From assembly GCA_963704435.1 (NCBI GenBank), contig OY969902.1, positions 720,001 to 752,000 of the forward strand: a stretch of 32,000 nucleotides of DNA, written 5' to 3'. Position 1 is the first letter of the stretch; every line of letters starts with the position of its first letter. The position numbers were made by a program, and so were the translations under genes. Below, piece after piece: positions 4,865-32,000 of the stretch. Source of the stretch: an uncultured archaeon (GTDB lineage Archaea; Micrarchaeota; Micrarchaeia; Micrarchaeales; CABMGC01). The notes under the pieces were generated by a model, which saw only the letters and a list, made by a program, of their open reading frames with translations, made no database searches and was not told where the DNA came from.

Positions 4865-5539
4865 TTATTCTGCGAAGTTCCCTTCTAGGCTCAGCGTTTT
4901 CTGGAACCCTTTGCTTTGCTCCTGCGCCTTCGCAGCTGGCTTCGGCGGGGCCAGCCTTCCCCCGTTCTCCCTCAGCCACTTCCTCCGCTCCCTGTATTCG
5001 GGGACAGCGGTCCCGACGAGGTTCCAGAAGCCCCTGGAGTGGTTCAGCTCCTTGACGTGCGCCAGCTCGTGCACTATGACGTAATCGAGTATCTCGGGAG
5101 GCGCGAAGAGCAGCCTGAAGTTGATGGATATGGTGTTCGTGGCCTTAGAGTAGCTGCCCCATCTGGTGCGCTGGTCCTTTATCCGCACCGGCCCGAGCTC
5201 GAACCCGAAGTGGCTCGAGTTGAGCGCGTTTACGCGGAGCGCCAGATCAGGAAGGACGCAGCGGGACATTGCCTTCCTGGCGAGCGCGCTGACGTGGCGG
5301 TTCCTATCCCTGGCGCTGAGCCCCTGGGCAAGGGCTATGTCGACCCTCCCGTTGGACAGGCGCACGCGGGACGAGCTGCCGCTCCCCTCGCTGACGCTGA
5401 CCGCGAAGTTATGTCCCAGTAGCGAAAGCTCCTGCCCGTCGCGGAACTTCAGGAGGGCGGGCGCTCCCGTCCCGTAGCGGCGCACCCTCACCCTCCGCAT
5501 CCTCGTAGGCCCGAATCCAAATAGCGTCCATAGGTCCAT
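4865..5539 (-). CDS. YgjP-like (DUF45/M48-related) metal-dependent hydrolase
   Basis: 224 aa. RWGSYSKATNTISINFRLLFAPPEILDYVIVHELAHVKELNHSRGFWNLV matches the WGSC...HELxHL...NHSxxFW signature of the YgjP family. Confidence 0.85.
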   Translation of the reverse strand: MDLWTLFGFGPTRMRRVRVRRYGTGAPALLKFRDGQELSLLGHNFAVSVSEGSGSSSRVRLSNGRVDIALAQGLSARDRNRHVSALARKAMSRCVLPDLALRVNALNSSHFGFELGPVRIKDQRTRWGSYSKATNTISINFRLLFAPPEILDYVIVHELAHVKELNHSRGFWNLVGTAVPEYRERRKWLRENGGRLAPPKPAAKAQEQSKGFQKTLSLEGNFAE

Positions 5540-5619
5540 GCAAGCACACCGGTCGCTGCGGTCGCAATAGCTATATGCGGAATGGGATTAAAAAATCCAG
5601 ACTTCGCCCCAGAGGGACC

Positions 5620-7008
5620 CTATTTCGCGATTATCTCGTAGCCTTCGGGGGTGTCCTCCACCTTGAACCCCTTTTCCGCAATCCTTTTCCTAAGCTCGTC
5701 AGAAAGTTTCCAGTCCCTCTTCTTCCTGGCGGCCTCACGCTCCTCAGCCAAATCGCGTATCTCCTGCGGGATGCGGGCCTCCTTCAGAGAATCGAGTCCG
5801 AGTCCGAACACCCTATCATATTTCATCGCGGACGCGTACTTGTCGGAAGGGGAAACTTTAGGGTCCTTCAGGAGCTCGTGCAGCACGCGCAGCGCCTCGT
5901 GCGTGTTAAGGTCGTCGTTTATGCTCTCCAGGAACCTCTTGTCGTACTCCTTCAGGCCCCTGCTTTTGGTTTTTGCCGAGTGCGCAGCCTCATTCTTTAG
6001 CCCAATCAGGTCCTTCTTCAGTCTGGCGAAGTCCGCTTTGGCTACCGCGAGCTTGTCCCAACTGAAGACCAGGCTTTTCCTGTAGTTGGTTCCCAGGCAA
6101 TAGTACCTGTACTCAAGGGGCTCGAAGCCCTTTTGGACCACCCTGTTGAGCGTCAGGAACTCCCCCACCGACTTCGACATTTTTCCGTTCTCAGTTATGA
6201 GGTGCTGGCTGTGCAGCCAGTAGTTCACGAACTTCTTGCCGGTGGCCGCCTCGCTCTGCGCGATCTCGTTCGTATGGTGTATCGGTATGTGGTCTATGCC
6301 TCCGCAATGGATGTCGAAGTGTTTGCCGAGGTATTTCATGCTCATCGCGCTGCACTCTATGTGCCAGCCAGGGAAACCCGTGCCCCAAGGGCTTTCCCAT
6401 TCCATCTGCCTCTTCTTGTCCTTCGGGCTGAACTTCCACAGCGCGAAATCGGTGCTGTTCCTCTTCTCCTTGAGGCTTACTCTCTTCCCTGCCTCAAGGC
6501 CCTCCTTCTTCAGCCGCGCCATCTTCCCGTAGCCCTCGAACTTCATGCTGTCGAAGTATATGCCGTCCGAGGTCCTGTAGGTGTAACCCTTCCTCTCCAG
6601 TTCCTTGATCAGGTCTATCTGCTCCTTGATGTGGTCCGTCGCCTTGCATACGACCGTGGGCTTCAGGATGTTGAGCCTCCTGCAGTCGTCGAAGAAGGCC
6701 TTGGTGTACTCATCGGCTATCACCCAGGCGCTCTTCCCCTCTCGCAGCGCCCCTTTCTCCATCTTGTCCATTCCTTCGTCGGAATCGGAAACGAGGTGGC
6801 CCACGTCCGTGACGTTCATCACGTGGGTGACCTTGAAGCCGTTGTATTCAAGGGACCTTTTCAGGACGTCCTCGAAGATGTAGGTCCTGAGGTTGCCTAT
6901 GTGGGCGTAATCGTAGACCGTCGGGCCGCAGGTGTACAGTCCCACCTTCCCAGGATGGATCGGAACGAACCTCGTCTTGCGACCAGAGAGCGTGTTATAG
7001 AAGCGCAT
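5620..7008 (-). CDS. cysS: Cysteine--tRNA ligase
   Basis: 462 aa. N-terminal FYNTLSGRK...[20 protein letters not shown] (HIGH-type motif), WHIECSAM, and [10 protein letters not shown] (KMSKS). Confidence 0.97.
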
Positions 7009-7066: not shown

Positions 7067-8668
7067 TCAGAGCTCGGCCGCCCTTGCGGCGCAAGCGGCC
7101 ACGAATCCCACGAAGACGGGGCTGGGCCTCTCCAGCCTTGACGTGAACTCGGGATGGAACTGCGTGCCGAGATGGAACCTGTTCTTCCTGTATTCGGCTA
7201 TCTCCATAATCTTCCCATCGGAAAATGTGCCGGAGAAAGCAAGTCCCGCCTTCTCGAGTCTTTCGACGTATTTCGGGTTTACCTCGTACCTGTGCCTGAA
7301 CCTCTCCATCACCATCCCCTTTCCGTAGAGGCGGTAGGCGAGGCTCCCTTTCCTTATGTCCGTCTCCCTGGCTCCGAGCCGGTTTGTCGCACCCATCTCA
7401 GTGAGTCGCTGGTCCGGCATGAGCTCCACCACTGGGTGCTCGGTGTCAGGATCAGCCTCGGTAGAGTTGGCACCCTTTAGTCCGCAGACGTTCCTCGCAA
7501 ATTCCACAACCATGTACTGCATGCCGAAGCAGAGGCCGAGGTAGGGGATGTCATTCTCCCTCGCGTACCTTATGCACTGGACCTTGCCCTCGGTGCCCCT
7601 CGAGCCGTAGCCTCCCGGGACTATCACTCCGTCGCAGCCGTCGAGCGCGCCCACGCTCTCCTTACCGTCCTCTATGTCTGTGGTCTCGATCCACTTGAGC
7701 TTGACTGCGCGGTCGTTGTGCGCGCCTGCGTGCACGAGCGCCTCCTTGATGCTGGCATAGGAGTCCTTCAGGGCGGTGTACTTCCCGGTTATCGCGACCG
7801 TCACGCTGCCCTTCGGGTTCTTTATCCTCTCGACCAGCCCGCTCCATTTCTTCAGGTCTGGCTCCCTTGCCTTTATGCCGAGCTTGGCCGTTATGAGCCT
7901 GCCCATGCCCTGCCTCTCGAAGGATAGCGGCGCATCGTATATGGACGCGATGTCGGGATCGTCTATCACCGCCTCTGGAGCGACGTTGCAGAACATCGCT
8001 ATCTTCCTCCTGGCGTCCTGCGTCAGCTTGCCGTTCCCCCTGCACACTATTATCTCCGGCTGTATGCCGAGCCCCTGCAGGATCCTCGTGGCCTGCTGGG
8101 TCGGCTTGGTCTTCTGCTCCCCCACCGCATCAAGCGCTGGGACGTATGTCAGCTGTATGAAGAGCACATTGCCCCTCTCCTCCATCGCGAGCTGCCTCAT
8201 CGCCTCTATGAAGTACGAGTTCTCCATGTCCCCGACGGTCCCCCCTACTTCTATCATCACCACGTCGGCGCCGAAATCGCTGCCGACCTTCCTTACCCTG
8301 CCCTTGATGTCGTTCGTGAGATGCGGTATTATCTGGACGTCGGAGCCCAGGTAGTCGCCTTTCCTCTCCTTCTCTATGATGTGCCTGAACAGCTTGCCGC
8401 CTGTGATGCTGTTCTCGGAGTTGAAGTCCATATTCAGGAATCTCTCATAGGTCCCGAAGTCCATGTCGCACTCGCATCCGTCGCCGAGCACGAATACTTC
8501 CCCGTGCCTATACGGGTTCATGGTCCCGCAGTCCACGTTGAGGTATCCGTCGAACTTTATCGGAACTACCTTCAGGCCGCGCGCCTGTAGGCTCTTGCCT
8601 ATCGAGGCGGTGACTATCCCCTTGCCTAGCCCGCTCATTATCGAACCGAGTACTACGATATACTTCAC
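7067..8668 (-). CDS. pyrG: CTP synthase
   Basis: 533 aa with a GTG start. KYIVVLGSIMSGLGKGIVTASIG synthetase N-terminus, and a C-terminal glutamine amidotransferase domain with GLCFGMQ (catalytic Cys) and QFHPEF. Confidence 0.97.
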   Translation of the reverse strand: MKYIVVLGSIMSGLGKGIVTASIGKSLQARGLKVVPIKFDGYLNVDCGTMNPYRHGEVFVLGDGCECDMDFGTYERFLNMDFNSENSITGGKLFRHIIEKERKGDYLGSDVQIIPHLTNDIKGRVRKVGSDFGADVVMIEVGGTVGDMENSYFIEAMRQLAMEERGNVLFIQLTYVPALDAVGEQKTKPTQQATRILQGLGIQPEIIVCRGNGKLTQDARRKIAMFCNVAPEAVIDDPDIASIYDAPLSFERQGMGRLITAKLGIKAREPDLKKWSGLVERIKNPKGSVTVAITGKYTALKDSYASIKEALVHAGAHNDRAVKLKWIETTDIEDGKESVGALDGCDGVIVPGGYGSRGTEGKVQCIRYARENDIPYLGLCFGMQYMVVEFARNVCGLKGANSTEADPDTEHPVVELMPDQRLTEMGATNRLGARETDIRKGSLAYRLYGKGMVMERFRHRYEVNPKYVERLEKAGLAFSGTFSDGKIMEIAEYRKNRFHLGTQFHPEFTSRLERPSPVFVGFVAACAARAAEL

Positions 8669-8793
8669 GTCAACGCCCCCGAATTACAAGCCAAGCAAAT
8701 TATATATTTGGTTCATGCCAAAACGGTTATCGCGGTCTAACTGAGAAGATTTTATTTCGGAAGCTTGCGCTTATGGCTGGGGCGATATTTAGG

Positions 8794-8918
8794 CGCCAGG
8801 GCAGGGATTTGAACCCTGAAGCCCCGTGAGGGGCACCGGTTTTCATTGCATCACGAATCAGCTCTTGAGACGCTCTGCGCTCAAGACCGGCGCATTTACC
8901 GGATTCTGCCACCCTGGC
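8794..8918 (-). tRNA. tRNA-Ser(UGA), class II, with an approximately 38-nt intron after position 37
   Basis: Hand-folded from the minus strand. Acceptor GCCAGGG/CCCTGGC, discriminator G. Anticodon stem CCGGT/ACCGG with loop C-U-UGA-G-[intron]-A. Long variable arm TGCCCCTCACGGGGCTT. T-arm CAGGG-TTCAAAT-CCCTG. The intron (about 8842-8879) contains CTCAAGA, complementary to the anticodon-loop TCTTGAG. No encoded CCA. Confidence 0.85.
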
Positions 8919-8943
8919 ACGACAATATGTTCTCCTTTTTGAG

Positions 8944-8950
8944 TTATAAA
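8944..8950 (-). promoter_or_regulatory. Candidate TATA box for tRNA-Ser
   Basis: The minus strand reads GTTTATAAC, centred about 29 nt upstream of the tRNA 5' end at 8918. Confidence 0.4.
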
Positions 8951-9073
8951 CCTGAGCATGGCCAGACTGTGAAGGCAAGGCGTTTTGCCTTCTCTGTTTT
9001 CCTGTCCGCCAATTTGCCGATTTCCTGTCTGCGCAGTTCCCCAGAATAGGCATAAATAGCAGTTTTTCCATAT

Positions 9074-9964
9074 ATGCTTGGGGTTAACGTGACGTTCAAG
9101 CCAGCTCATAGTGCAGAGCAAATAACAGAGTTGAGGTCCCTGCATATTGACTTGCAGGCGCTTACGCATGAGCAGAGGAACGGGAATGGCCCTGCAGCTG
9201 AGGCGGTTATTGGCCTCAGGAGGCCGCTGGTCAGGATTGCGGCGGAGAGATACGGAAGTACGGACCCGGAAGTCCTCCTTAATTCGGCAGGGGGCCGCAA
9301 TCTGAGCTGGACCGTGCACGAGGTCGACCTCGACATCGAGCGCGCCTCCGCAGGAGTCCTAAGAGTGCTCGGCAAAGACCGGAGCAGCACTGCGCTCTCT
9401 CCGGACAGTTTCCTTTCAGCAATGCTCGATCGCTGCTATGGCGACGCGCATTATCAAGAGGCGATGTTCGGCATCCTGGCGAGACAGGGAATTCATATGT
9501 GGAGGCAGCTCTGCTCCTGCACCAGGGATTTCACATCGGTGCGTAGCCGCTACGGGCGTGCCGAGAGAGTCATCGGATGGGACTACGCCGCCGCGTGCGA
9601 TAGAGAGGAGTTGCCGCTCCTGCGCGGGATTGGGCATTACGCGATCGAGTTCAAGTCCGTGGCCGCAATGGCGCTGGCATATTCGGACATCGTTGAAGAC
9701 GCAGGTTTTGACGAGCACAGGGGCCACTTCGAGAGGGTGCTAGATGCGCTTGGCAGGGGTTACCTGCCTCTGGGCTATGAAGGAGGAGGGCTCCGCGTCA
9801 TAGCGTTCACGCATAAGGGAAAGGCATCAAAGGAGAAGGACCGCAGGCGCGGAATCAGCAGCAGCATTAACGAGTACGAGCTCACGCAATTAATAACAAC
9901 AGCGGTACGGAATTTGAAGGCGCGAGAAGAAGGAGGAAGAGACGCACATATCCCAGATAAATAG
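9074..9964 (+). CDS. Hypothetical protein
   Basis: 296-aa ORF with balanced composition and no competing long ORF on the other strand. A cataaatag TATA-like element lies about 20 nt upstream. No recognisable family. Confidence 0.55.
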   Translation: MLGVNVTFKPAHSAEQITELRSLHIDLQALTHEQRNGNGPAAEAVIGLRRPLVRIAAERYGSTDPEVLLNSAGGRNLSWTVHEVDLDIERASAGVLRVLGKDRSSTALSPDSFLSAMLDRCYGDAHYQEAMFGILARQGIHMWRQLCSCTRDFTSVRSRYGRAERVIGWDYAAACDREELPLLRGIGHYAIEFKSVAAMALAYSDIVEDAGFDEHRGHFERVLDALGRGYLPLGYEGGGLRVIAFTHKGKASKEKDRRRGISSSINEYELTQLITTAVRNLKAREEGGRDAHIPDK

Positions 9965-26939: not shown

Positions 26940-27302
26940 ATGCGCATGTTTGACAAGGACGCCCTATTCAAGAAGTTCGACGCCGCGATGATGCACGGGG
27001 CTCTGAAGCTCATCGTGCTCGCTCACCTCCGCGACAGCGGCACGTACCCATATGCTATGCTGAAGCACTTCAAGGGCAGCGGCCACTCATTCCTCGCGGG
27101 CATGGGCAAGTCGGAGATGTACAACATAATCAATTCGCTGGAGAAGGAGGGCTTCGTGTCTTACCGCATAGTCAAGAAGGGAGCGCGGTCGCAGAAGCAC
27201 TATGCGCTCACGCCGAAGGGAAGGAAGGTGATCGGGACATCGAAGCAGATAATGACCCGGGCTATGGGCGACTTCAGGAAGCTTGTGAAGAGTGAGTTCT
27301 GA
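26940..27302 (+). CDS. PadR-family transcriptional regulator
   Basis: 120 aa. LKLIVLAHLRDSGTYPYAMLKHF...MYNIINSLEKEGFVSYRIVKKGARSQKHYALTPKGRKV fits the PadR winged-helix pattern (LEKxGxV...RKxYxLTxxG). Its stop overlaps the next ATG (TGATG). Confidence 0.8.
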   Translation: MRMFDKDALFKKFDAAMMHGALKLIVLAHLRDSGTYPYAMLKHFKGSGHSFLAGMGKSEMYNIINSLEKEGFVSYRIVKKGARSQKHYALTPKGRKVIGTSKQIMTRAMGDFRKLVKSEF

Positions 27303-28294
27303 TGGACGACTATGCGATAGAAATGGACAACGCGGTCCAGAAGTTCGGCGACTTCATCGCAGTCGACGGGATCACCCTGAAGATAAAGAAGGGCGAGATA
27401 TTCGGGCTCTTGGGGCCGAACGGCGCCGGAAAGAGCACCATAATAAACATGCTTCTCGGGCTGCTGAAGCCCACTTCGGGAAGCGTCTTCGTGAACGGTG
27501 TCGACATGCAGAAGGACCCGAACCGCGCGAAGAAGACGCTGGGCGTGGTCACGCAGGAGACCGTCGTCGAGCCCGAGCTAACCGCAGAGCAGAACCTGAT
27601 GATCTTCGGAGACCTCTACCACGTGCCCAGAGAGAAGCTTCCCAAGAAGATAGACTTCCTGCTGGAGCTCGCCGACCTGAAAAATTTCCGCAAGTCGTAC
27701 GCAGGCACCTTCTCGGGAGGAATGAAGCGCAGGCTCGAGACGGTGAAGGCCCTCGTGCACGACCCCGACATAATCTTCATGGACGAGCCGACGACCGGGC
27801 TTGACATCCAAAACAGGACGAGGATGTGGCAGCTCCTTAGGCAGATAAACAGGGAGAGGAACGTCACGGTGCTCATGACCACGCAATACCTGGAGGAGGC
27901 GGACCAGATGTGCAACAGGATCGCGATAATAGACCACGGGAAGCTCGTGGCAGTCGGAACGCCCGCGGAACTGAGGCAGAAGATCGGGCTCTATGACATC
28001 ATAGAGATCGCCGCAGACAAGGAGGACCTGCAGAAGGTCGCGCAGATATTCAAGAAGCTGGGCCTGGAACCGCAGGCCCTCAGCAACAAGGTGATCTGTT
28101 CTGTAAAGAGCGACGCGGTGAAGACGATAGAGAGGCTGATAAAGACCATAACCGCCGCAGGCATAAAGATACAGAGCGTAAGTCTGCACGAGCCCACGAT
28201 AGACGACGTCTTCCTGAAGCTGACGGGCTCCTCTGTGAGGGACGCGACAGGCGAGTACGTGGGAAAGGGCATATCGTTCGGAGGTAGAAGATAG
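27302..28294 (+). CDS. ABC transporter ATP-binding protein (ABC-2/DrrA-like subfamily)
   Basis: 330 aa. GEIFGLLGPNGAGKST (Walker A), FSGGMKRRLE (signature), IIFMDEPTTGLD (Walker B), TTQYLEEAD (H-loop). Confidence 0.95.
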   Translation: MDDYAIEMDNAVQKFGDFIAVDGITLKIKKGEIFGLLGPNGAGKSTIINMLLGLLKPTSGSVFVNGVDMQKDPNRAKKTLGVVTQETVVEPELTAEQNLMIFGDLYHVPREKLPKKIDFLLELADLKNFRKSYAGTFSGGMKRRLETVKALVHDPDIIFMDEPTTGLDIQNRTRMWQLLRQINRERNVTVLMTTQYLEEADQMCNRIAIIDHGKLVAVGTPAELRQKIGLYDIIEIAADKEDLQKVAQIFKKLGLEPQALSNKVICSVKSDAVKTIERLIKTITAAGIKIQSVSLHEPTIDDVFLKLTGSSVRDATGEYVGKGISFGGRR

Positions 28295-28295
28295 C

Positions 28296-29402
28296 ATGAG
28301 CATAATGGAAGACGCGACGACCCTGTTCACAAGGGAGATGCTGATATTCAAGAAGAATATCACCGCGGGCTTAGCCAGGACCATCATCTTTCCTGTCATA
28401 TTCATACTTCTCCTCGGAAGCATAGGCAACACCCCGCAGCACGTCCCGATAGCGGTGGTAAACTTCGACAACGGCGCGGCATCGCTGGCGTTCATAAACA
28501 TGCTTACCTCGGGCGGGGCGCTCAGCGTCAAGGGAATGACTGACCAGCAGGATGCGATGAGCCTCCTGGCACAGGGAAGCGTCGCGGCCGTGGTCGTCAT
28601 ACCCAGCGGCTTCTCGAGCTCCAGTTCATCCGATGTCTTCGTCTACGTGGATGCCTCGTCGTCCGCCTCGGCCGAGGTAGCTACCAGCGTGATAAGCTCG
28701 GCTGCGTCAAGCATGAACTCGAAGCTTGTCGCAAGGAACGCGCAGGGCGAGGGGATATCCGTAATCACCAACCCCGCCTACGGGGCGACCAGCAACAACA
28801 TCAGCTTCACCGTAGCCGGAATACTGGTGCTCGTAGCGACTACGGGAGCCATATTCAGCGGCGGGTTCACGGTGCTGCAGGACAGGCAGCTCGGCAACCT
28901 CAAGGCGTTCCTCGTGACCCCCATAAACAAGGTCTCGATACTCCTCAGCAAGGTGTTCTACGGCACGTTCCAGTCCGCGTTCAGCGCATACGTTGCGCTC
29001 GCCATCGGGCTGCTGTACGGCGCGAGCATCGCATCGGGCGTTGTCGGAATGCTGGAGATACTCTGGTTCATATTCCTCGTAGGCTTCGGGTTCAGCTGCA
29101 TAGCGGTGTCCCTGGCGATAAGGATGAAGCAGACGCAGACCTACGCCCTTGTCGCGCAGGTGGTGTCGCTCCCGCTTTCGTTCCTCGCAGGCGCACTGGT
29201 CCCCGTGTCCTCGCTGCCCGCCTTCCTGGCCCCCCTGGCGGCCTTCAACCCGCTGACCTACGCAGTCAACGCAGTAAGGGACATAATGCTCAAGGGCTCG
29301 CTTCCGATCGGGGCGTTCCTCGTCGATTCGACGATACTGATAGCCTTCTCAATAGTCATGCTGGCGATAAGCGTCTTGCTATTTAAGAATATAAACGAAT
29401 AA
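28296..29402 (+). CDS. ABC-2 type transporter permease
   Basis: 368 aa. N-terminal TM, a large extracytoplasmic loop, then five C-terminal TM helices, the typical ABC-2 topology. It starts 1 nt after the ATPase stop. Confidence 0.88.
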   Translation: MSIMEDATTLFTREMLIFKKNITAGLARTIIFPVIFILLLGSIGNTPQHVPIAVVNFDNGAASLAFINMLTSGGALSVKGMTDQQDAMSLLAQGSVAAVVVIPSGFSSSSSSDVFVYVDASSSASAEVATSVISSAASSMNSKLVARNAQGEGISVITNPAYGATSNNISFTVAGILVLVATTGAIFSGGFTVLQDRQLGNLKAFLVTPINKVSILLSKVFYGTFQSAFSAYVALAIGLLYGASIASGVVGMLEILWFIFLVGFGFSCIAVSLAIRMKQTQTYALVAQVVSLPLSFLAGALVPVSSLPAFLAPLAAFNPLTYAVNAVRDIMLKGSLPIGAFLVDSTILIAFSIVMLAISVLLFKNINE

Positions 29403-29410
29403 GTGATCTC

Positions 29411-30985
29411 ATGAAAAATACGACAAAAGGAATCTGGATCCTGCTGCTCTTACCGCTCATGATGGGGTTGGCGCAGGCGCAGTCCACCCAATCAGGAGCG
29501 CTGTCTCTGGCCAACGTGGCGGTGATGCCCAATCCAGTGATAGCCGGGAGCAACGCGACGGTGGTGTTCCAGCTGTACAACTCCTACGGATCGTCGCTGA
29601 CGAACGTCAACCTGCAGCTCACGGGAAGCTACCCCCTGCTGAACTTCTCGCCCTCCAGCTCATACCTGGTGAGCGTAGTGGGGAGCGGCCTCTACGCTGG
29701 CGCGATAAGCTACACGATGCATGTCCCGAAGACGACCCCTACAGGCACCTATACGCTCAGCCTGGTCGGCACGTACCAGACCGTGTCATCAGTGTACGGC
29801 CAGGTCGTGGGCAGCTCGGTAATGCCCCTAAGCGTGTATGTGAACGGCATACCCAACATAACCGCGGTCGCGGGCTCCACGCCAGTGACGCCGGGCAGCC
29901 CGATGGTGCTGTACGCGCGCATCGTGAACTCGGGCTACGACACCGCGAAGAACTTGGTGATCAGGGCTCTCAACACCAGCGGATTCACGCCATACGGAGT
30001 GGGCACGTTCTCTATAAGTTCGCTTCCGGTAGGCGCGGCGCTGAACGTGTCGATAAACTACCAGACGTCCCAGTCCGTGAAGAACGGGACCTACTCGCTC
30101 CCCATCTCGGTCTCGTACCAGTCGGGCATAGGGACCCAGTACTCGAAGACGATAAACCTGACTGAGAGCATCGCGATAGTCAGCCCGCAGGTCAGGCTCA
30201 GCTTCGCCAATCCTATGCCGCAGGCGCTCTTCGCAGGATACAACCAGACCGTCCAGCTGCAGATACAGAACGTGGGCAACGGCGTGGCCAGGAATGTCAG
30301 CGTGTCGCTGGTAGCGGGACAGGGCACAAACCTGCTCGGCTCCGTGGACAGCTTCTTCATAAGCACGCTGCAGCCGGGCCAGACCATAAGCGAGCCGGTA
30401 CTGCTGTCAGCCAGCGGCGTGGGCAGCGCTACGGTCAACGCGACCGTGGCCTACTACTCAGCGGACTACAGCAAGAACTTCAACGGCGCGCAGCTGCTTA
30501 GCCTTGCGCTCGCGCCGGCGGCGCAGTTCACTGTCACGGGCGAGAGGTCAAGCCTCGCGCCGGGATCGACCGACGTGCCCGTGACGTTCGTCGTGAAGAA
30601 CACCGGCACCATAGCCGCGCAGGGCGTGCAGTTCAACCTGCAGAGCACATACCCGATAACTCCAGTGTCGAGCACCTACTACCTGAGCGACCTGCCCATC
30701 GGCTCCAGCGCCAACGTCACCTTCCTGGTAAGCGCGGATTCGCAGGGAGTGCCAAGTTCATACCCTGTGACGATCTTCGAGCAGTGGAAGCAGCCTAACG
30801 GCGCCACCAACCAGCAGTTCTCCGGGTCCGTCAACTACTTCGTGACCGTCGGCACAGGCGGAAGCAGCCTGGGCGACATCGCGGGAGCGGCTGTGATCAT
30901 CGTGATAGCAGTGGGCGCGTACCTGTTCATGAAGAAAAGGAAGGCGAAGGCAAAGCCAGCGGCCGAGAAGGCGAGGGGCAAGTGA
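29411..30985 (+). CDS. Surface protein with four CARDB/COG1361-like Ig-fold repeats and a C-terminal TM anchor
   Basis: Signal-like MKNTTKGIWILLLLPLMMGLAQAQ. Four roughly 100-110-aa repeats of pattern PG/AGS...(V/L)...(I/V)xNxG...AxxV...L (for example LQIQNVGNGVARNVSVSL and FVVKNTGTIAAQGVQFNL). C-terminal IAGAAVIIVIAVGAYLF plus a KKRKAKAK tail. Confidence 0.8.
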   Translation: MKNTTKGIWILLLLPLMMGLAQAQSTQSGALSLANVAVMPNPVIAGSNATVVFQLYNSYGSSLTNVNLQLTGSYPLLNFSPSSSYLVSVVGSGLYAGAISYTMHVPKTTPTGTYTLSLVGTYQTVSSVYGQVVGSSVMPLSVYVNGIPNITAVAGSTPVTPGSPMVLYARIVNSGYDTAKNLVIRALNTSGFTPYGVGTFSISSLPVGAALNVSINYQTSQSVKNGTYSLPISVSYQSGIGTQYSKTINLTESIAIVSPQVRLSFANPMPQALFAGYNQTVQLQIQNVGNGVARNVSVSLVAGQGTNLLGSVDSFFISTLQPGQTISEPVLLSASGVGSATVNATVAYYSADYSKNFNGAQLLSLALAPAAQFTVTGERSSLAPGSTDVPVTFVVKNTGTIAAQGVQFNLQSTYPITPVSSTYYLSDLPIGSSANVTFLVSADSQGVPSSYPVTIFEQWKQPNGATNQQFSGSVNYFVTVGTGGSSLGDIAGAAVIIVIAVGAYLFMKKRKAKAKPAAEKARGK

Positions 30986-30986
30986 A

Positions 30987-31637
30987 ATGCAATCCAAAGC
31001 TGAGAGCGCAGGAAGCGGCCCTGCCCTTATTGCGGAGAAGACCTTAGAAGCCTGCCTTGCGCTCGCGCAGCGGGCCAAGCAGGGCTGCCTGATCGTCTGC
31101 GAGACCAAGCCGATATCTAAGCAGTACTACAAGGACTCCAATAGGGATTTCTGCCACCCCGACCTGAGCCCGATCTCCATCTTCGACCCGGATGACAGGC
31201 AGGGCCTTGAGAAGCTCGCTGCGGTGGACGGCGCCCTGATACTCGACTCATCTGGTGCGATGCTACATTATGGGGCTACCCTACTCCATTCCACGAGCAT
31301 GCGCGGACACGGCAAGCGCCACGCCTTCGCGCGTGGCACGAGCATGGCGGTGAAGGGCGTAGTCTGCATTTTGCATTCGGAAGAGGACGGACACACGAGG
31401 TCGTTCAGGGACGGGTTTCTTGTCGTTGACATCGCGCCTGACGGGAAGCTGAAGAACATGACGCGCCATCGCATCGCCGCGCTCCTCTGCAACCCCCTCA
31501 CCGCCACATTGGCCGTGTCGGGCGTAGTGACCAGCATACTGTCGCTGAATCCATTGCCGGCCATCATTACGATAAGCGGCAGCACGATCTTGATCAGGCA
31601 GGGGTTCCTAGGGTTGAAGAAAACCATCGAGGGTTAG
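30987..31637 (+). CDS. Divergent DisA_N/DAC (diadenylate cyclase)-like domain protein with a hydrophobic C-terminal tail
   Basis: 216 aa. Aligns by eye to CdaA-type DAC: QGCLIVCET vs IGALIVIER; AVDGALILDSSGAMLHYGATLL vs LHDGAVIIKNNEIAAAACYL (DGA motif kept); HGKRHAFARGTS vs LGTRHRAAVGIS (GTRHR becomes GKRHA); VVCILHSEEDGHTRSF vs LTIIVSEETGGVSV. The C-terminus LTATLAVSGVVTSILSLNPLPAIITISGSTILI is hydrophobic. Confidence 0.6.
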   Translation: MQSKAESAGSGPALIAEKTLEACLALAQRAKQGCLIVCETKPISKQYYKDSNRDFCHPDLSPISIFDPDDRQGLEKLAAVDGALILDSSGAMLHYGATLLHSTSMRGHGKRHAFARGTSMAVKGVVCILHSEEDGHTRSFRDGFLVVDIAPDGKLKNMTRHRIAALLCNPLTATLAVSGVVTSILSLNPLPAIITISGSTILIRQGFLGLKKTIEG

Positions 31638-31638
31638 C

Positions 31639-32000
31639 ATGGACAAGGCCGCAGCGAGTATCGGAATAATCGGCGGGTCTCGGTTCTATTCATTGCTCGA
31701 GAATTCAGAGCGCGCTAACGTAGACACGCAGTACGGGAAGCCCAGCGACGAGATCACAATCGGGGAGTTGGCCGGAAAGAGGGTCGCCTTCCTGCCGCGG
31801 CACGGCGCAAGGCACACGCTTGCCCCGCACAAGGTCCCGTACCGCGCGAACATAGATGCGCTGAGCGGCCTGGGCGTAGGGAGGCTCATAGCGTCGAGCA
31901 CTGTCGGGTCCCTGGTCGCGGATTACGAGCCAGGGGACTTCGTCTTCTTCGACCAGTTCGTAAACATGTCGCACGGGCGCGAAGACACCTTCTTCGATTC
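31639..32000 (+). CDS. mtnP: S-methyl-5'-thioadenosine phosphorylase (purine nucleoside phosphorylase family), 3' end beyond the window
   Basis: Absent from the track (no stop inside the window). My translation is MDKAAASIGIIGGSRFYSLLENSERANVDTQYGKPSDEITIGELAGKRVAFLPRHGARHTLAPHKVPYRANIDAL...STVGSLVADYEPGDFVFFDQFVN, which closely parallels the MTAP N-terminal region (IGIIGGSG, GKPSD, FLxRHG..H...P..V.YRANI.AL, GSL, PGD...DQF). Confidence 0.9.
   Translation, partial: MDKAAASIGIIGGSRFYSLLENSERANVDTQYGKPSDEITIGELAGKRVAFLPRHGARHTLAPHKVPYRANIDALSGLGVGRLIASSTVGSLVADYEPGDFVFFDQFVNMSHGREDTFFD

Follow-up and report, generated by a model that had tools for sequence, protein, structure and literature searches.

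We analyzed a 32,000-nucleotide stretch of DNA from an uncultured Micrarchaeota archaeon (GCA_963704435.1, contig OY969902.1, positions 720,001 to 752,000 of the forward strand), hereafter called the window, in which a gene at positions 30987 to 31637 encodes a 216-amino-acid protein that combines a diadenylate cyclase (DAC) domain with a hydrophobic C-terminal tail. The gene runs from an ATG start codon to a TAG stop codon on the forward strand, as do all features of the window whose coordinates are given below unless stated otherwise. Its product belongs to a family of archaeal proteins of about 200 amino acids, each composed of a DAC domain followed by a C-terminal tail, that is not covered by the five curated DAC classes. 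We consider the protein to be probably an active, membrane-tethered cyclic-dinucleotide synthase that would function as a head-to-head dimer like other DACs, with cyclic di-AMP (c-di-AMP) as its most likely product. An earlier note on this DNA, prepared from the nucleotide sequence, had described an atypical DAC-domain protein with a retained DGA motif, an altered RHR region, and a hydrophobic segment at its C terminus, and each of these features is borne out by Pfam, profile alignment, Foldseek, and a hydropathy map.

The window protein adopts a diadenylate cyclase fold

The Pfam model PF02457 (DisA_N) matches residues 27 to 143 of the window protein (positions 31065 to 31415) with an E value of 4.1e-7 and a score of 30.1 bits, which exceeds the gathering score of 27, and the alignment spans profile positions 7 to 117 of 119. 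This placement agrees with the alignment by eye in the earlier note, which had assigned the central ~130 amino acids to the DAC domain. A search of the Protein Data Bank (PDB) with the single window sequence recovered no DAC, and its sole match was an unrelated protein with an E value of 0.86. When a profile built from 12 family members was used, diadenylate cyclases were the only matches, the best being Enterococcus CdaA with an E value of 2.5e-4. In the resulting alignment, DGA is paired with DGA, GhGKRHafalGtS with fGTRHRAAvGiS, and SEEDG with SEETG.

Two AlphaFold models were generated from input alignments of 12 and 36 sequences, and these gave predicted local distance difference test (pLDDT) values for the core (residues 11 to 170) of approximately 90 and at least 93, respectively. 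For both models, the best 50 Foldseek matches listed from the PDB are all DAC-domain structures (CdaA, DacA, DacM, CdaM, and DisA), with E values near 1e-7 and target-normalized TM-scores of 0.6 to 0.69. We regard the assignment of the mixed alpha/beta DAC fold to the window protein as beyond reasonable doubt.

Active-site motifs and lineage-specific changes

The DGA motif (D81-G82-A83; GAC GGC GCC at positions 31227 to 31235) is located precisely where the earlier note had placed it, aligns with the DGA of CdaA, and is invariant in a 36-sequence family alignment (A2) that reaches down to 23% identity. The other invariant positions in A2 are G33, L77, G90, G109, R111, H112, S131, E132, E133, and P191. 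The three residues S131, E132, and E133, together with D134 (positions 31377 to 31388), form the counterpart of the SEET sequence of CdaA according to the profile alignment. The Asp of the DGA motif and the first Arg of the RHR region are known to be needed for activity because the corresponding mutants of EcPanS and DacM lose their product. Specifically, the D68A and R105A variants of EcPanS are inactive (PMC13640721), and DacM yields no c-di-AMP when it carries R143A and only traces when it carries D112A or G113A (10.1101/2022.03.11.483894).

The counterpart of the GTRHR(A/T) motif is G109-K110-R111-H112-A113-F114 (positions 31311 to 31328). Sequence and profile alignment both support the earlier reading that GTRHR is replaced by GKRHA (residues 109 to 113, positions 31311 to 31325), such that the first Arg and the His of a Thr-preceded RHR are kept while the Thr and the second Arg are replaced. 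The earlier note had allowed that a canonical GTRHR might be recovered once sequencing errors were corrected. This explanation was ruled out because the motif is conserved in 22 relatives, every named one of which is from Micrarchaeota, and because a second, independent contig of 757 bp holds the same protein with a single unrelated substitution (H94D). Among the 22 members of the clade defined by this Lys (hereafter the Lys clade), the Lys, Arg, His, and following Ala are present in all, Phe is present in 21, and the complete GHGKRHAFA sequence is present in 20; GKRH is therefore found in 22 of 22 members. The 69 short relatives outside the clade read G-[FHY]-G-T-R-H-[SA]-A-A and carry neither the Lys nor the Phe.

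The two losses noted previously differ in their significance. At the position of the second Arg, the short tail-bearing relatives have Ser or Ala, whereas the N-terminally extended DAC relatives are variable and have Arg in only 7 of about 50 representatives, a set that includes ten proteins that scored best on the DacZ model, yet below its cut-off. Because the wider tail family carries GTRH[SA], the second Arg is commonly lost, and because this position is also variable in the best DacZ-model relatives, the full RHR motif defines bacterial classes only. Thus, the description of the RHR region as atypical holds for the loss of Thr, which is specific to this lineage, but not for the loss of the second Arg, which is ordinary outside bacterial CdaA and DisA proteins. 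A further change, from Ala to Phe at F114, had escaped the earlier note. Among the sequences compared, the truly lineage-specific changes are the replacement of Thr by Lys and that of the next Ala by Phe, both of which are confined to one order.

K110 and F114 align with Thr107 and Thr111 of Thermotoga DisA (TmaDisA), which contact adenine (PMC13640721), and therefore the base preference of the window protein may differ from that of canonical enzymes. Active cyclases are known that have other residues at the first of these positions, including Gly104 in EcPanS and Ala112 in AbPanS (PMC13640721) as well as Ala142 in DacM (10.1101/2022.03.11.483894).

A conserved hydrophobic tail follows the DAC domain

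The hydropathy map confirms that the hydrophobic segment lies at the C terminus, whereas CdaA carries N-terminal transmembrane (TM) helices. The segment comprises residues 163 to 203 (positions 31473 to 31595), contains no charged residue over its 41 positions, and is bounded by R162 and R204. Tail hydropathy exceeds 1.6, with a Kyte-Doolittle maximum of 1.8 for a 19-residue span, and its peaks near residues 180 and 198 flank the sequence N188-P189-L-P191. The C-terminal end beyond the tail is basic, and the N terminus of the protein is hydrophilic. Conservation in the tail is among the highest in the protein, as illustrated by an identity of approximately 80% between the window protein and relative P0004, which are 59% identical overall. 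In the Lys-clade alignment (A1), the invariant tail positions are S178, G179, S183, L187, N188, P189, P191, A192, T195, G198, and S199, and small-xxx-small patterns are conserved. These features are consistent with a helical hairpin or re-entrant membrane anchor whose flanks would be expected to be cytoplasmic and that could mediate pairing.

Weak tblastn matches to the tail in Acidobacteriota (L020 and L022 to L025) were rejected as short hydrophobic look-alikes in an unrelated protein that probably arose by chance. The resemblance at L022 to L025 is to the tail motif (...SVLTLNPL.A.IT.G...) and, in L023 for example, falls in the membrane segment of a 321-amino-acid protein (5818 to 6783) whose gene adjoins an AAA ATPase gene.

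Family, phylogeny, and distribution

A word-indexed protein search recovered 13 relatives with 39 to 69% identity to the window protein, all with a precomputed PF02457 assignment, and a scan of GTDB species genomes identified 18 loci with full-length relatives; ortholog identities overall are 39 to 70%. Fifteen of the 18 loci are titled Micrarchaeota or a subgroup thereof (Microcaldota at NCBI) and three are titled 'uncultured archaeon'; two genomes hold two copies each. A Micrarchaeaceae genome (L013) carries a tandem pair of these genes at 5175 to 5873 and 5926 to 6609. An exhaustive search of 1.84 billion representatives with the A1 profile returned 499 matches with E values of 1e-3 or lower, including 72 clusters at 1e-10 or lower. 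Many of the stronger matches are proteins of approximately 200 amino acids that align end to end, including the tail, whereas the weaker matches are proteins of 270 to 450 amino acids with a C-terminal DAC domain.

We define the short, tail-bearing archaeal DAC family by a length of approximately 190 to 240 amino acids, a DAC domain that begins near residue 10 to 30, an uncharged C-terminal segment that is kinked at a Pro and has a basic end, and a full-length profile match, all of which are found in the window protein. The NCBIfam class models (CdaA, CdaS, CdaM, DisA, and DacZ) all fall short of their cut-offs when run against the window protein, its paralog described below, and two members of the wider family. 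Public labels for these proteins are either 'DisA with diadenylate cyclase activity', which is an automatic JGI name, or 'hypothetical protein'.

The window derives from a genome that is a single contig of 852,977 bp and is 92% complete. The earlier note had raised the question of whether another, canonical DAC is encoded there, and the one further DAC gene that we detected, at 193376 to 193996 (L001, 1450 to 2070), encodes a paralog of this same tail-bearing type. This protein has 202 to 206 amino acids depending on the start codon, is 52% identical to the window protein, and shares with it DGA, GHGKRHAFA, SEED, and the hydrophobic tail. Its PF02457 score of 46.8 bits is above that of the window copy.

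A maximum-likelihood tree built from 135 DAC domains groups the Lys-bearing sequences into a single clade (21 tree rows; support 100/96) that is nested among Thr-bearing GTRH[SA] tail proteins, and it places the N-terminally extended DAC proteins in a separate clade (support 100/100). The window protein resides in a four-member subclade of the Lys clade and the paralog in another. Thr-type proteins with the same tail were identified by sequence at eight loci in families f5, f7, f15, f20, and f22. Three Thr-type members (L050, L051, and L054, from families f7 and f5) read SEQD, with Gln in place of the second Glu that is invariant in the other members examined.

We also surveyed a sample of 301 Micrarchaeota genomes with PF02457. 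No gene of the CdaA, DisA, or DacZ type was found by this search, and all matches reside at loci of the tail-bearing family with the exception of one open reading frame (ORF). The tail-bearing family is thus the only DAC type found in the sample. The exceptional ORF, in genome G250 (C7; L056, 1219 to 2433), encodes 404 amino acids with a weak C-terminal DAC match of 31 bits that reads GARHF, and it is the sole non-family DAC in the sample.

Gene neighborhood

In the genome under study and in those of its nearest relatives, the DAC gene is the last but one in a string of genes for a PadR regulator, a DrrAB-type exporter, and a CARDB protein. The string in the window is headed by the PadR gene (26940 to 27302; Pfam), which is followed by genes for a DrrA-type ATP-binding cassette (ABC) ATPase (27302 to 28294; NCBIfam drrA TIGR01188, 325.8 bits versus a cut-off of 312) and an ABC-2 permease (28296 to 29402; Pfam). 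The next gene (29411 to 30985) encodes a predicted secreted CARDB/NEW3-repeat protein of 524 amino acids with three stretches each of Pfam CARDB and NPCBM_assoc, a C-terminal TM helix, and a basic tail. Downstream of the DAC gene, the start of a gene for S-methyl-5'-thioadenosine phosphorylase (MTAP; 270 amino acids; NCBIfam MTAP models, E value 1e-46) occupies positions 31639 to 32000 and extends past the end of the window. The single-nucleotide coupling to the gene for an extracellular CARDB-like protein that the earlier note called unusual is real, as the TGA stop codon of the CARDB gene at 30983 to 30985 is separated by one nucleotide from the ATG at 30987, and it is kept in the closest orthologs; the MTAP gene likewise begins one nucleotide past the DAC stop codon.

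The linkage between CARDB and DAC genes is not universal in the family. The order ABC ATPase-permease-CARDB-DAC is present at 6 of 20 examined loci, with PadR ahead in at least 4 of the 6. The same order recurs in L044, the closest syntenic relative of the window, whose DAC ortholog is 58 to 59% identical. This locus preserves the one-nucleotide junction between the CARDB and DAC genes as well as MTAP downstream, and its CARDB protein is shorter by one repeat (420 versus 524 amino acids). At more distant linked loci, the gap is approximately 60 to 500 nucleotides, intervening ORFs are present at two loci, and MTAP is absent. MTAP, which follows the DAC gene in none but the closest orthologs, was therefore rejected as a conserved partner. 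The two major branches of the Lys clade both include copies linked to the exporter and CARDB genes, and therefore the linkage is either old or recurrent. This neighborhood is not conserved at the examined loci of Thr-type tail members. Of the 13 sampled genomes that are DAC-positive, 4 have the DAC gene next to the permease gene. The paralog is divergent from a gene for a membrane SCP2-like protein. It is convergent to a gene for a 1044-amino-acid beta-helix protein, an arrangement common to L002 and, less closely, L013.

An antisense ORF of 119 amino acids at 31268 to 31627 (reverse strand) lies inside the DAC gene and has tblastn matches in all related loci. It was rejected as a gene because these matches are a by-product of sense-strand conservation.

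Candidate c-di-AMP turnover and response proteins

The genome encodes three stand-alone DHH-DHHA1 proteins of 334 to 355 amino acids (361736 to 362740, 362771 to 363838, and 429885 to 430907). Proteins of this type have been proposed to be archaeal c-di-AMP or pApA hydrolases (PMC10249747), and the three are possible turnover enzymes. Three CBS-domain proteins are also present, as are three adjacent TrkA_N genes (351439 to 353396) with no detectable RCK_C, two of which encode proteins with membrane N termini. Two adjacent DHH-DHHA1 genes (361736 to 363838) are located approximately 8 kb from the TrkA_N genes. In a genome of the sister family (G217, C12; L055), a membrane TrkA_N gene is located 150 nucleotides upstream of a Lys-type DAC-tail gene (8257 to 8955 and 9106 to 9714), which is the only adjacency seen between a DAC-tail gene and a candidate ion-channel regulator.

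Proposed function and alternative explanations

In the mechanism that we favor, two cytoplasmic DAC domains would meet head to head, and each would bind one nucleoside triphosphate via D81-G82 of the DGA motif, R111-H112, and S131-E132-E133. The paired domains would then generate a cyclic dinucleotide with 3',5' linkages, c-di-AMP being the most probable one. The 41-residue tail, with its two short hydrophobic stretches split by N-P-x-P and its basic end, would hold the enzyme at the membrane and may also promote self-pairing or association with further membrane proteins. By analogy with the function of CdaR on CdaA, the CARDB surface protein or the exporter could modulate the DAC, a hypothesis prompted by their recurrent adjacency. 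An active enzyme is favored because every residue known to be needed is kept over deep divergence and because no DAC of another type was found in the lineage.

Several observations weigh against an active, membrane-tethered c-di-AMP synthase. Among the sequences examined, Lys at the Thr position is present in no DAC outside the clade. The subclade of the window protein is on a long branch, and comparison of the window with L044 reveals identities of 87% for the ABC ATPase, 84% for the permease, and 81% for MTAP versus 54% for the CARDB protein and 58% for the DAC protein. The long branch and faster divergence could reflect relaxed constraint, and the fast-evolving, adjacent DAC and CARDB genes may co-evolve or may both face weaker constraint. 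The distribution is also patchy. The family was found in 23 of the 301 sampled genomes (16 of the 176 high-quality ones), and the Lys type, which falls in families f1 and f2, the two that make up the order of the window, was found in 12 of the 128 other sampled genomes of that order, where these counts are lower bounds owing to the sample and to a pre-filter that missed the window copy in the Pfam search, related genomes are not independent observations, and Lys and Thr types were split by score with a sequence check at one locus (G217). Housekeeping c-di-AMP systems are usually far more widely conserved than such genes. In the two families, 49 of 53 and 70 of 75 genomes carry the permease (119 of 128), and therefore the transporter module does not depend on the DAC gene. 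From these frequencies, an obligatory coupling of the DAC to the ABC/CARDB module was rejected, and the DAC gene is an accessory addition to a core module rather than a core gene itself. The tail has pLDDT values below 50 in both AlphaFold models, even with the 36-sequence alignment, and its membrane insertion and topology are predictions from hydropathy. Searches of the same genome revealed no TrkA_C/RCK_C domain and no PstA/DarA-type receptor. The search for phosphodiesterases that the earlier note had suggested was only partly productive, as it yielded the three DHH-DHHA1 candidates but no PgpH-type 7TM-HD enzyme in this genome. TrkA_N (RCK_N) membrane proteins are present in 121 of the 301 genomes and do not co-vary with the DAC gene.

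Some of these observations fit other explanations. If K110 and F114, at the adenine-contact positions of TmaDisA T107 and T111, have remodeled the base pocket of an active enzyme, then the product might be a mixed-base or non-adenine cyclic dinucleotide, or ADP or another substrate might be used. The near-complete conservation of both residues in the clade (22 of 22 and 21 of 22) and the absence of both from the 69 short outside relatives suggest selection rather than drift, and EcPanS, with Gly and Ala at these positions, makes 3'3'-cyclic UMP-AMP (3'3'-cUAMP) besides c-di-AMP (PMC13640721). However, AbPanS, with Ala at the first position, still makes c-di-AMP only (PMC13640721), and the characterized DACs in the cited literature make c-di-AMP, save for the cUAMP by-product of EcPanS; we consider an altered product or substrate to be unlikely. 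We also judge it improbable that the window protein is a non-catalytic DAC-fold protein, such as a membrane-bound sensor of nucleotides or c-di-AMP or a scaffold that regulates its envelope neighbors. Such a role would be compatible with a Thr-to-Lys change that is without precedent among the DACs examined, with the accessory nature of the gene, with its fast evolution beside a gene for a fast-evolving surface protein, and with the failure to find RCK_C and PstA/DarA receptor domains in the genome. However, pseudoenzymes usually lose catalytic residues, whereas DGA, Arg-His, and Ser-Glu-Glu are invariant in the 36 sequences, and neither the genome nor the sampled phylum offers a DAC of another type as a source of ligand. 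More specific is the proposal that Lys110 and Phe114 have retuned the base pocket toward a cyclic dinucleotide other than c-di-AMP that is made at the membrane, in those genomes in which the gene is linked to exporter and CARDB genes, for envelope signaling or for export toward the host archaeon. These Micrarchaeota are genome-reduced episymbionts that live on a host archaeon, but we view this proposal as a long shot.

A role in defense would liken the window protein to PanS of the PanDA system, a constitutive cyclase whose product restrains a toxic membrane effector until a virus sequesters that product. Minimal DACs have been shown to act in this manner (PMC13640721), and the window protein resembles them in being a short DAC without a regulatory domain that is highly divergent, patchily distributed, and subject to local duplications, including the tandem pair in L013. 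Nevertheless, no gene for a 2TM-beta-barrel effector or other defense gene adjoins the DAC gene, the neighbors are housekeeping or transport genes, and the guanine-plus-cytosine content of the window is the same as that of the genome. PADLOC gave no match for the DAC protein, its paralog, the CARDB protein, or the permease, although the 2023 version used predates PanDA, and the judgement on PanDA therefore rests on inspection of neighbors. PanS is also soluble and has approximately 150 amino acids, whereas a hydrophobic tail is conserved here, and we rate a PanS-like role as very improbable. Finally, a Pfam score that is just 3 bits over the cut-off and the long branch of the subclade might be expected of an ORF artifact or a decaying pseudogene. 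This interpretation is hardly credible and is effectively refuted by the conservation data, given that the frame is intact, that orthologs with 58 to 70% identity keep the length and motifs, that an independent contig encodes the same protein, and that the AlphaFold core is predicted with high confidence.

Significance of the tail-bearing DAC family

The domain, its chemistry, and the PF02457 assignment of the gene were already known. What is new is the architecture of a DAC domain followed by a conserved tail, which is unnamed and falls outside the five curated classes, along with the order-specific Lys/Phe pair at base-contact positions, the status of the family as the only DAC type in the sampled Micrarchaeota, and the recurring exporter and surface-protein neighborhood. 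Part of this may already be represented in the classification of Galperin 2023 (J Bacteriol 205:e00023-23), which reportedly sorts DACs into 22 families. Our literature search identified no paper that pairs diadenylate cyclase with Micrarchaeota.

To our knowledge, archaeal c-di-AMP signaling has been studied almost solely in DacZ- and DacY-type enzymes of Euryarchaeota. The DAC genes of the Micrarchaeota sample represent a different and uncharacterized architecture, which is present in other uncultured archaea too, and they are relevant to the question of whether symbiotic archaea with reduced genomes employ cyclic dinucleotides in the first place. Because changes at the same positions in PanS can broaden the product, the Lys clade offers a cheap and well-defined test of nucleotide choice by DACs. 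The recurrent position of the DAC gene behind exporter and surface-protein genes also points to a candidate regulator comparable to CdaR. Should the enzyme merely make c-di-AMP, it would still extend the DAC family tree in a useful, if ordinary, way.

Comparison with known DAC systems

The best structural and profile match to the window protein is CdaA/DacA from Firmicutes (PDB 4RV7, 6HVL, 6HUW, and 6GYW). DGA, Arg-His, and Ser-Glu-Glu align between the two proteins, and both are membrane associated, by prediction in the case of the window protein. Moreover, the gene for CdaA adjoins that for CdaR just as the window DAC gene adjoins a CARDB-like gene, each partner being a multi-repeat extracytoplasmic protein with one TM helix. 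However, CdaA has three N-terminal TM helices, whereas the window protein has a hydrophilic N terminus and a hairpin-like hydrophobic tail at its C terminus. The CdaA motif is GTRHRA rather than GKRHAF, sequence identity is only 18 to 22%, and the CdaA class model TIGR00159 gives no match to the window protein at an E value of 1 or lower. The glmM and YbbR genes that neighbor CdaA genes are absent at the window locus, where the neighbors are instead PadR, DrrAB, CARDB, and MTAP genes; CARDB and YbbR are unrelated repeats.

The DacZ/DacY (CdaZ) enzymes of Haloferax volcanii and Methanocaldococcus jannaschii are likewise archaeal, and their DAC domains are on a neighboring tree branch. In the relatives that match the DacZ model best, the second Arg is variable and the Thr is often Ala or Ser. 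DacZ has an N-terminal PK_C-like domain and no hydrophobic tail, whereas the window protein, with 216 amino acids and a DAC domain that starts at residue 27, is the opposite on both counts. The earlier note was thus correct that the extra domain of DacZ is lacking, as the DacZ model NF041371 scores 21.9 bits versus a cut-off of 430 and matches only through its last third (model positions 186 to 268). The helical spine and HhH DNA-binding domain of DisA are also lacking, since no Pfam domain beyond DAC was detected and the protein ends 73 residues after this domain.

Like the window protein, PanS is a DAC without a regulatory domain that has residues other than Thr at the adenine-contact positions (PMC13640721). 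It differs in being a bacterial, soluble protein of ~150 amino acids whose operon also encodes a 2TM-beta-barrel effector (PanE), a partner not present at the window locus. CdaM/DacM from Mycoplasma is a small, membrane-anchored, single-domain DAC whose TM-score of 0.69 is among the highest obtained. Its anchor is one N-terminal TM helix and its RHR motif is complete, whereas the window protein has a C-terminal tail and RHA; the CdaM and CdaS class models (NF038327 and NF038328), the latter for cyclases with autoinhibitory helices at the N terminus, do not match the window protein at an E value of 1 or lower. The short archaeal GTRH[SA] tail proteins, such as P0168 (NCBI 'hypothetical protein [archaeon]'), have the same length and architecture as the window protein, and they share with it the Pro kink, the basic end, and, in many cases, SEED. 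These proteins keep Thr before and Ala after the Arg-His motif, whereas the clade that includes the window protein has Lys and Phe.

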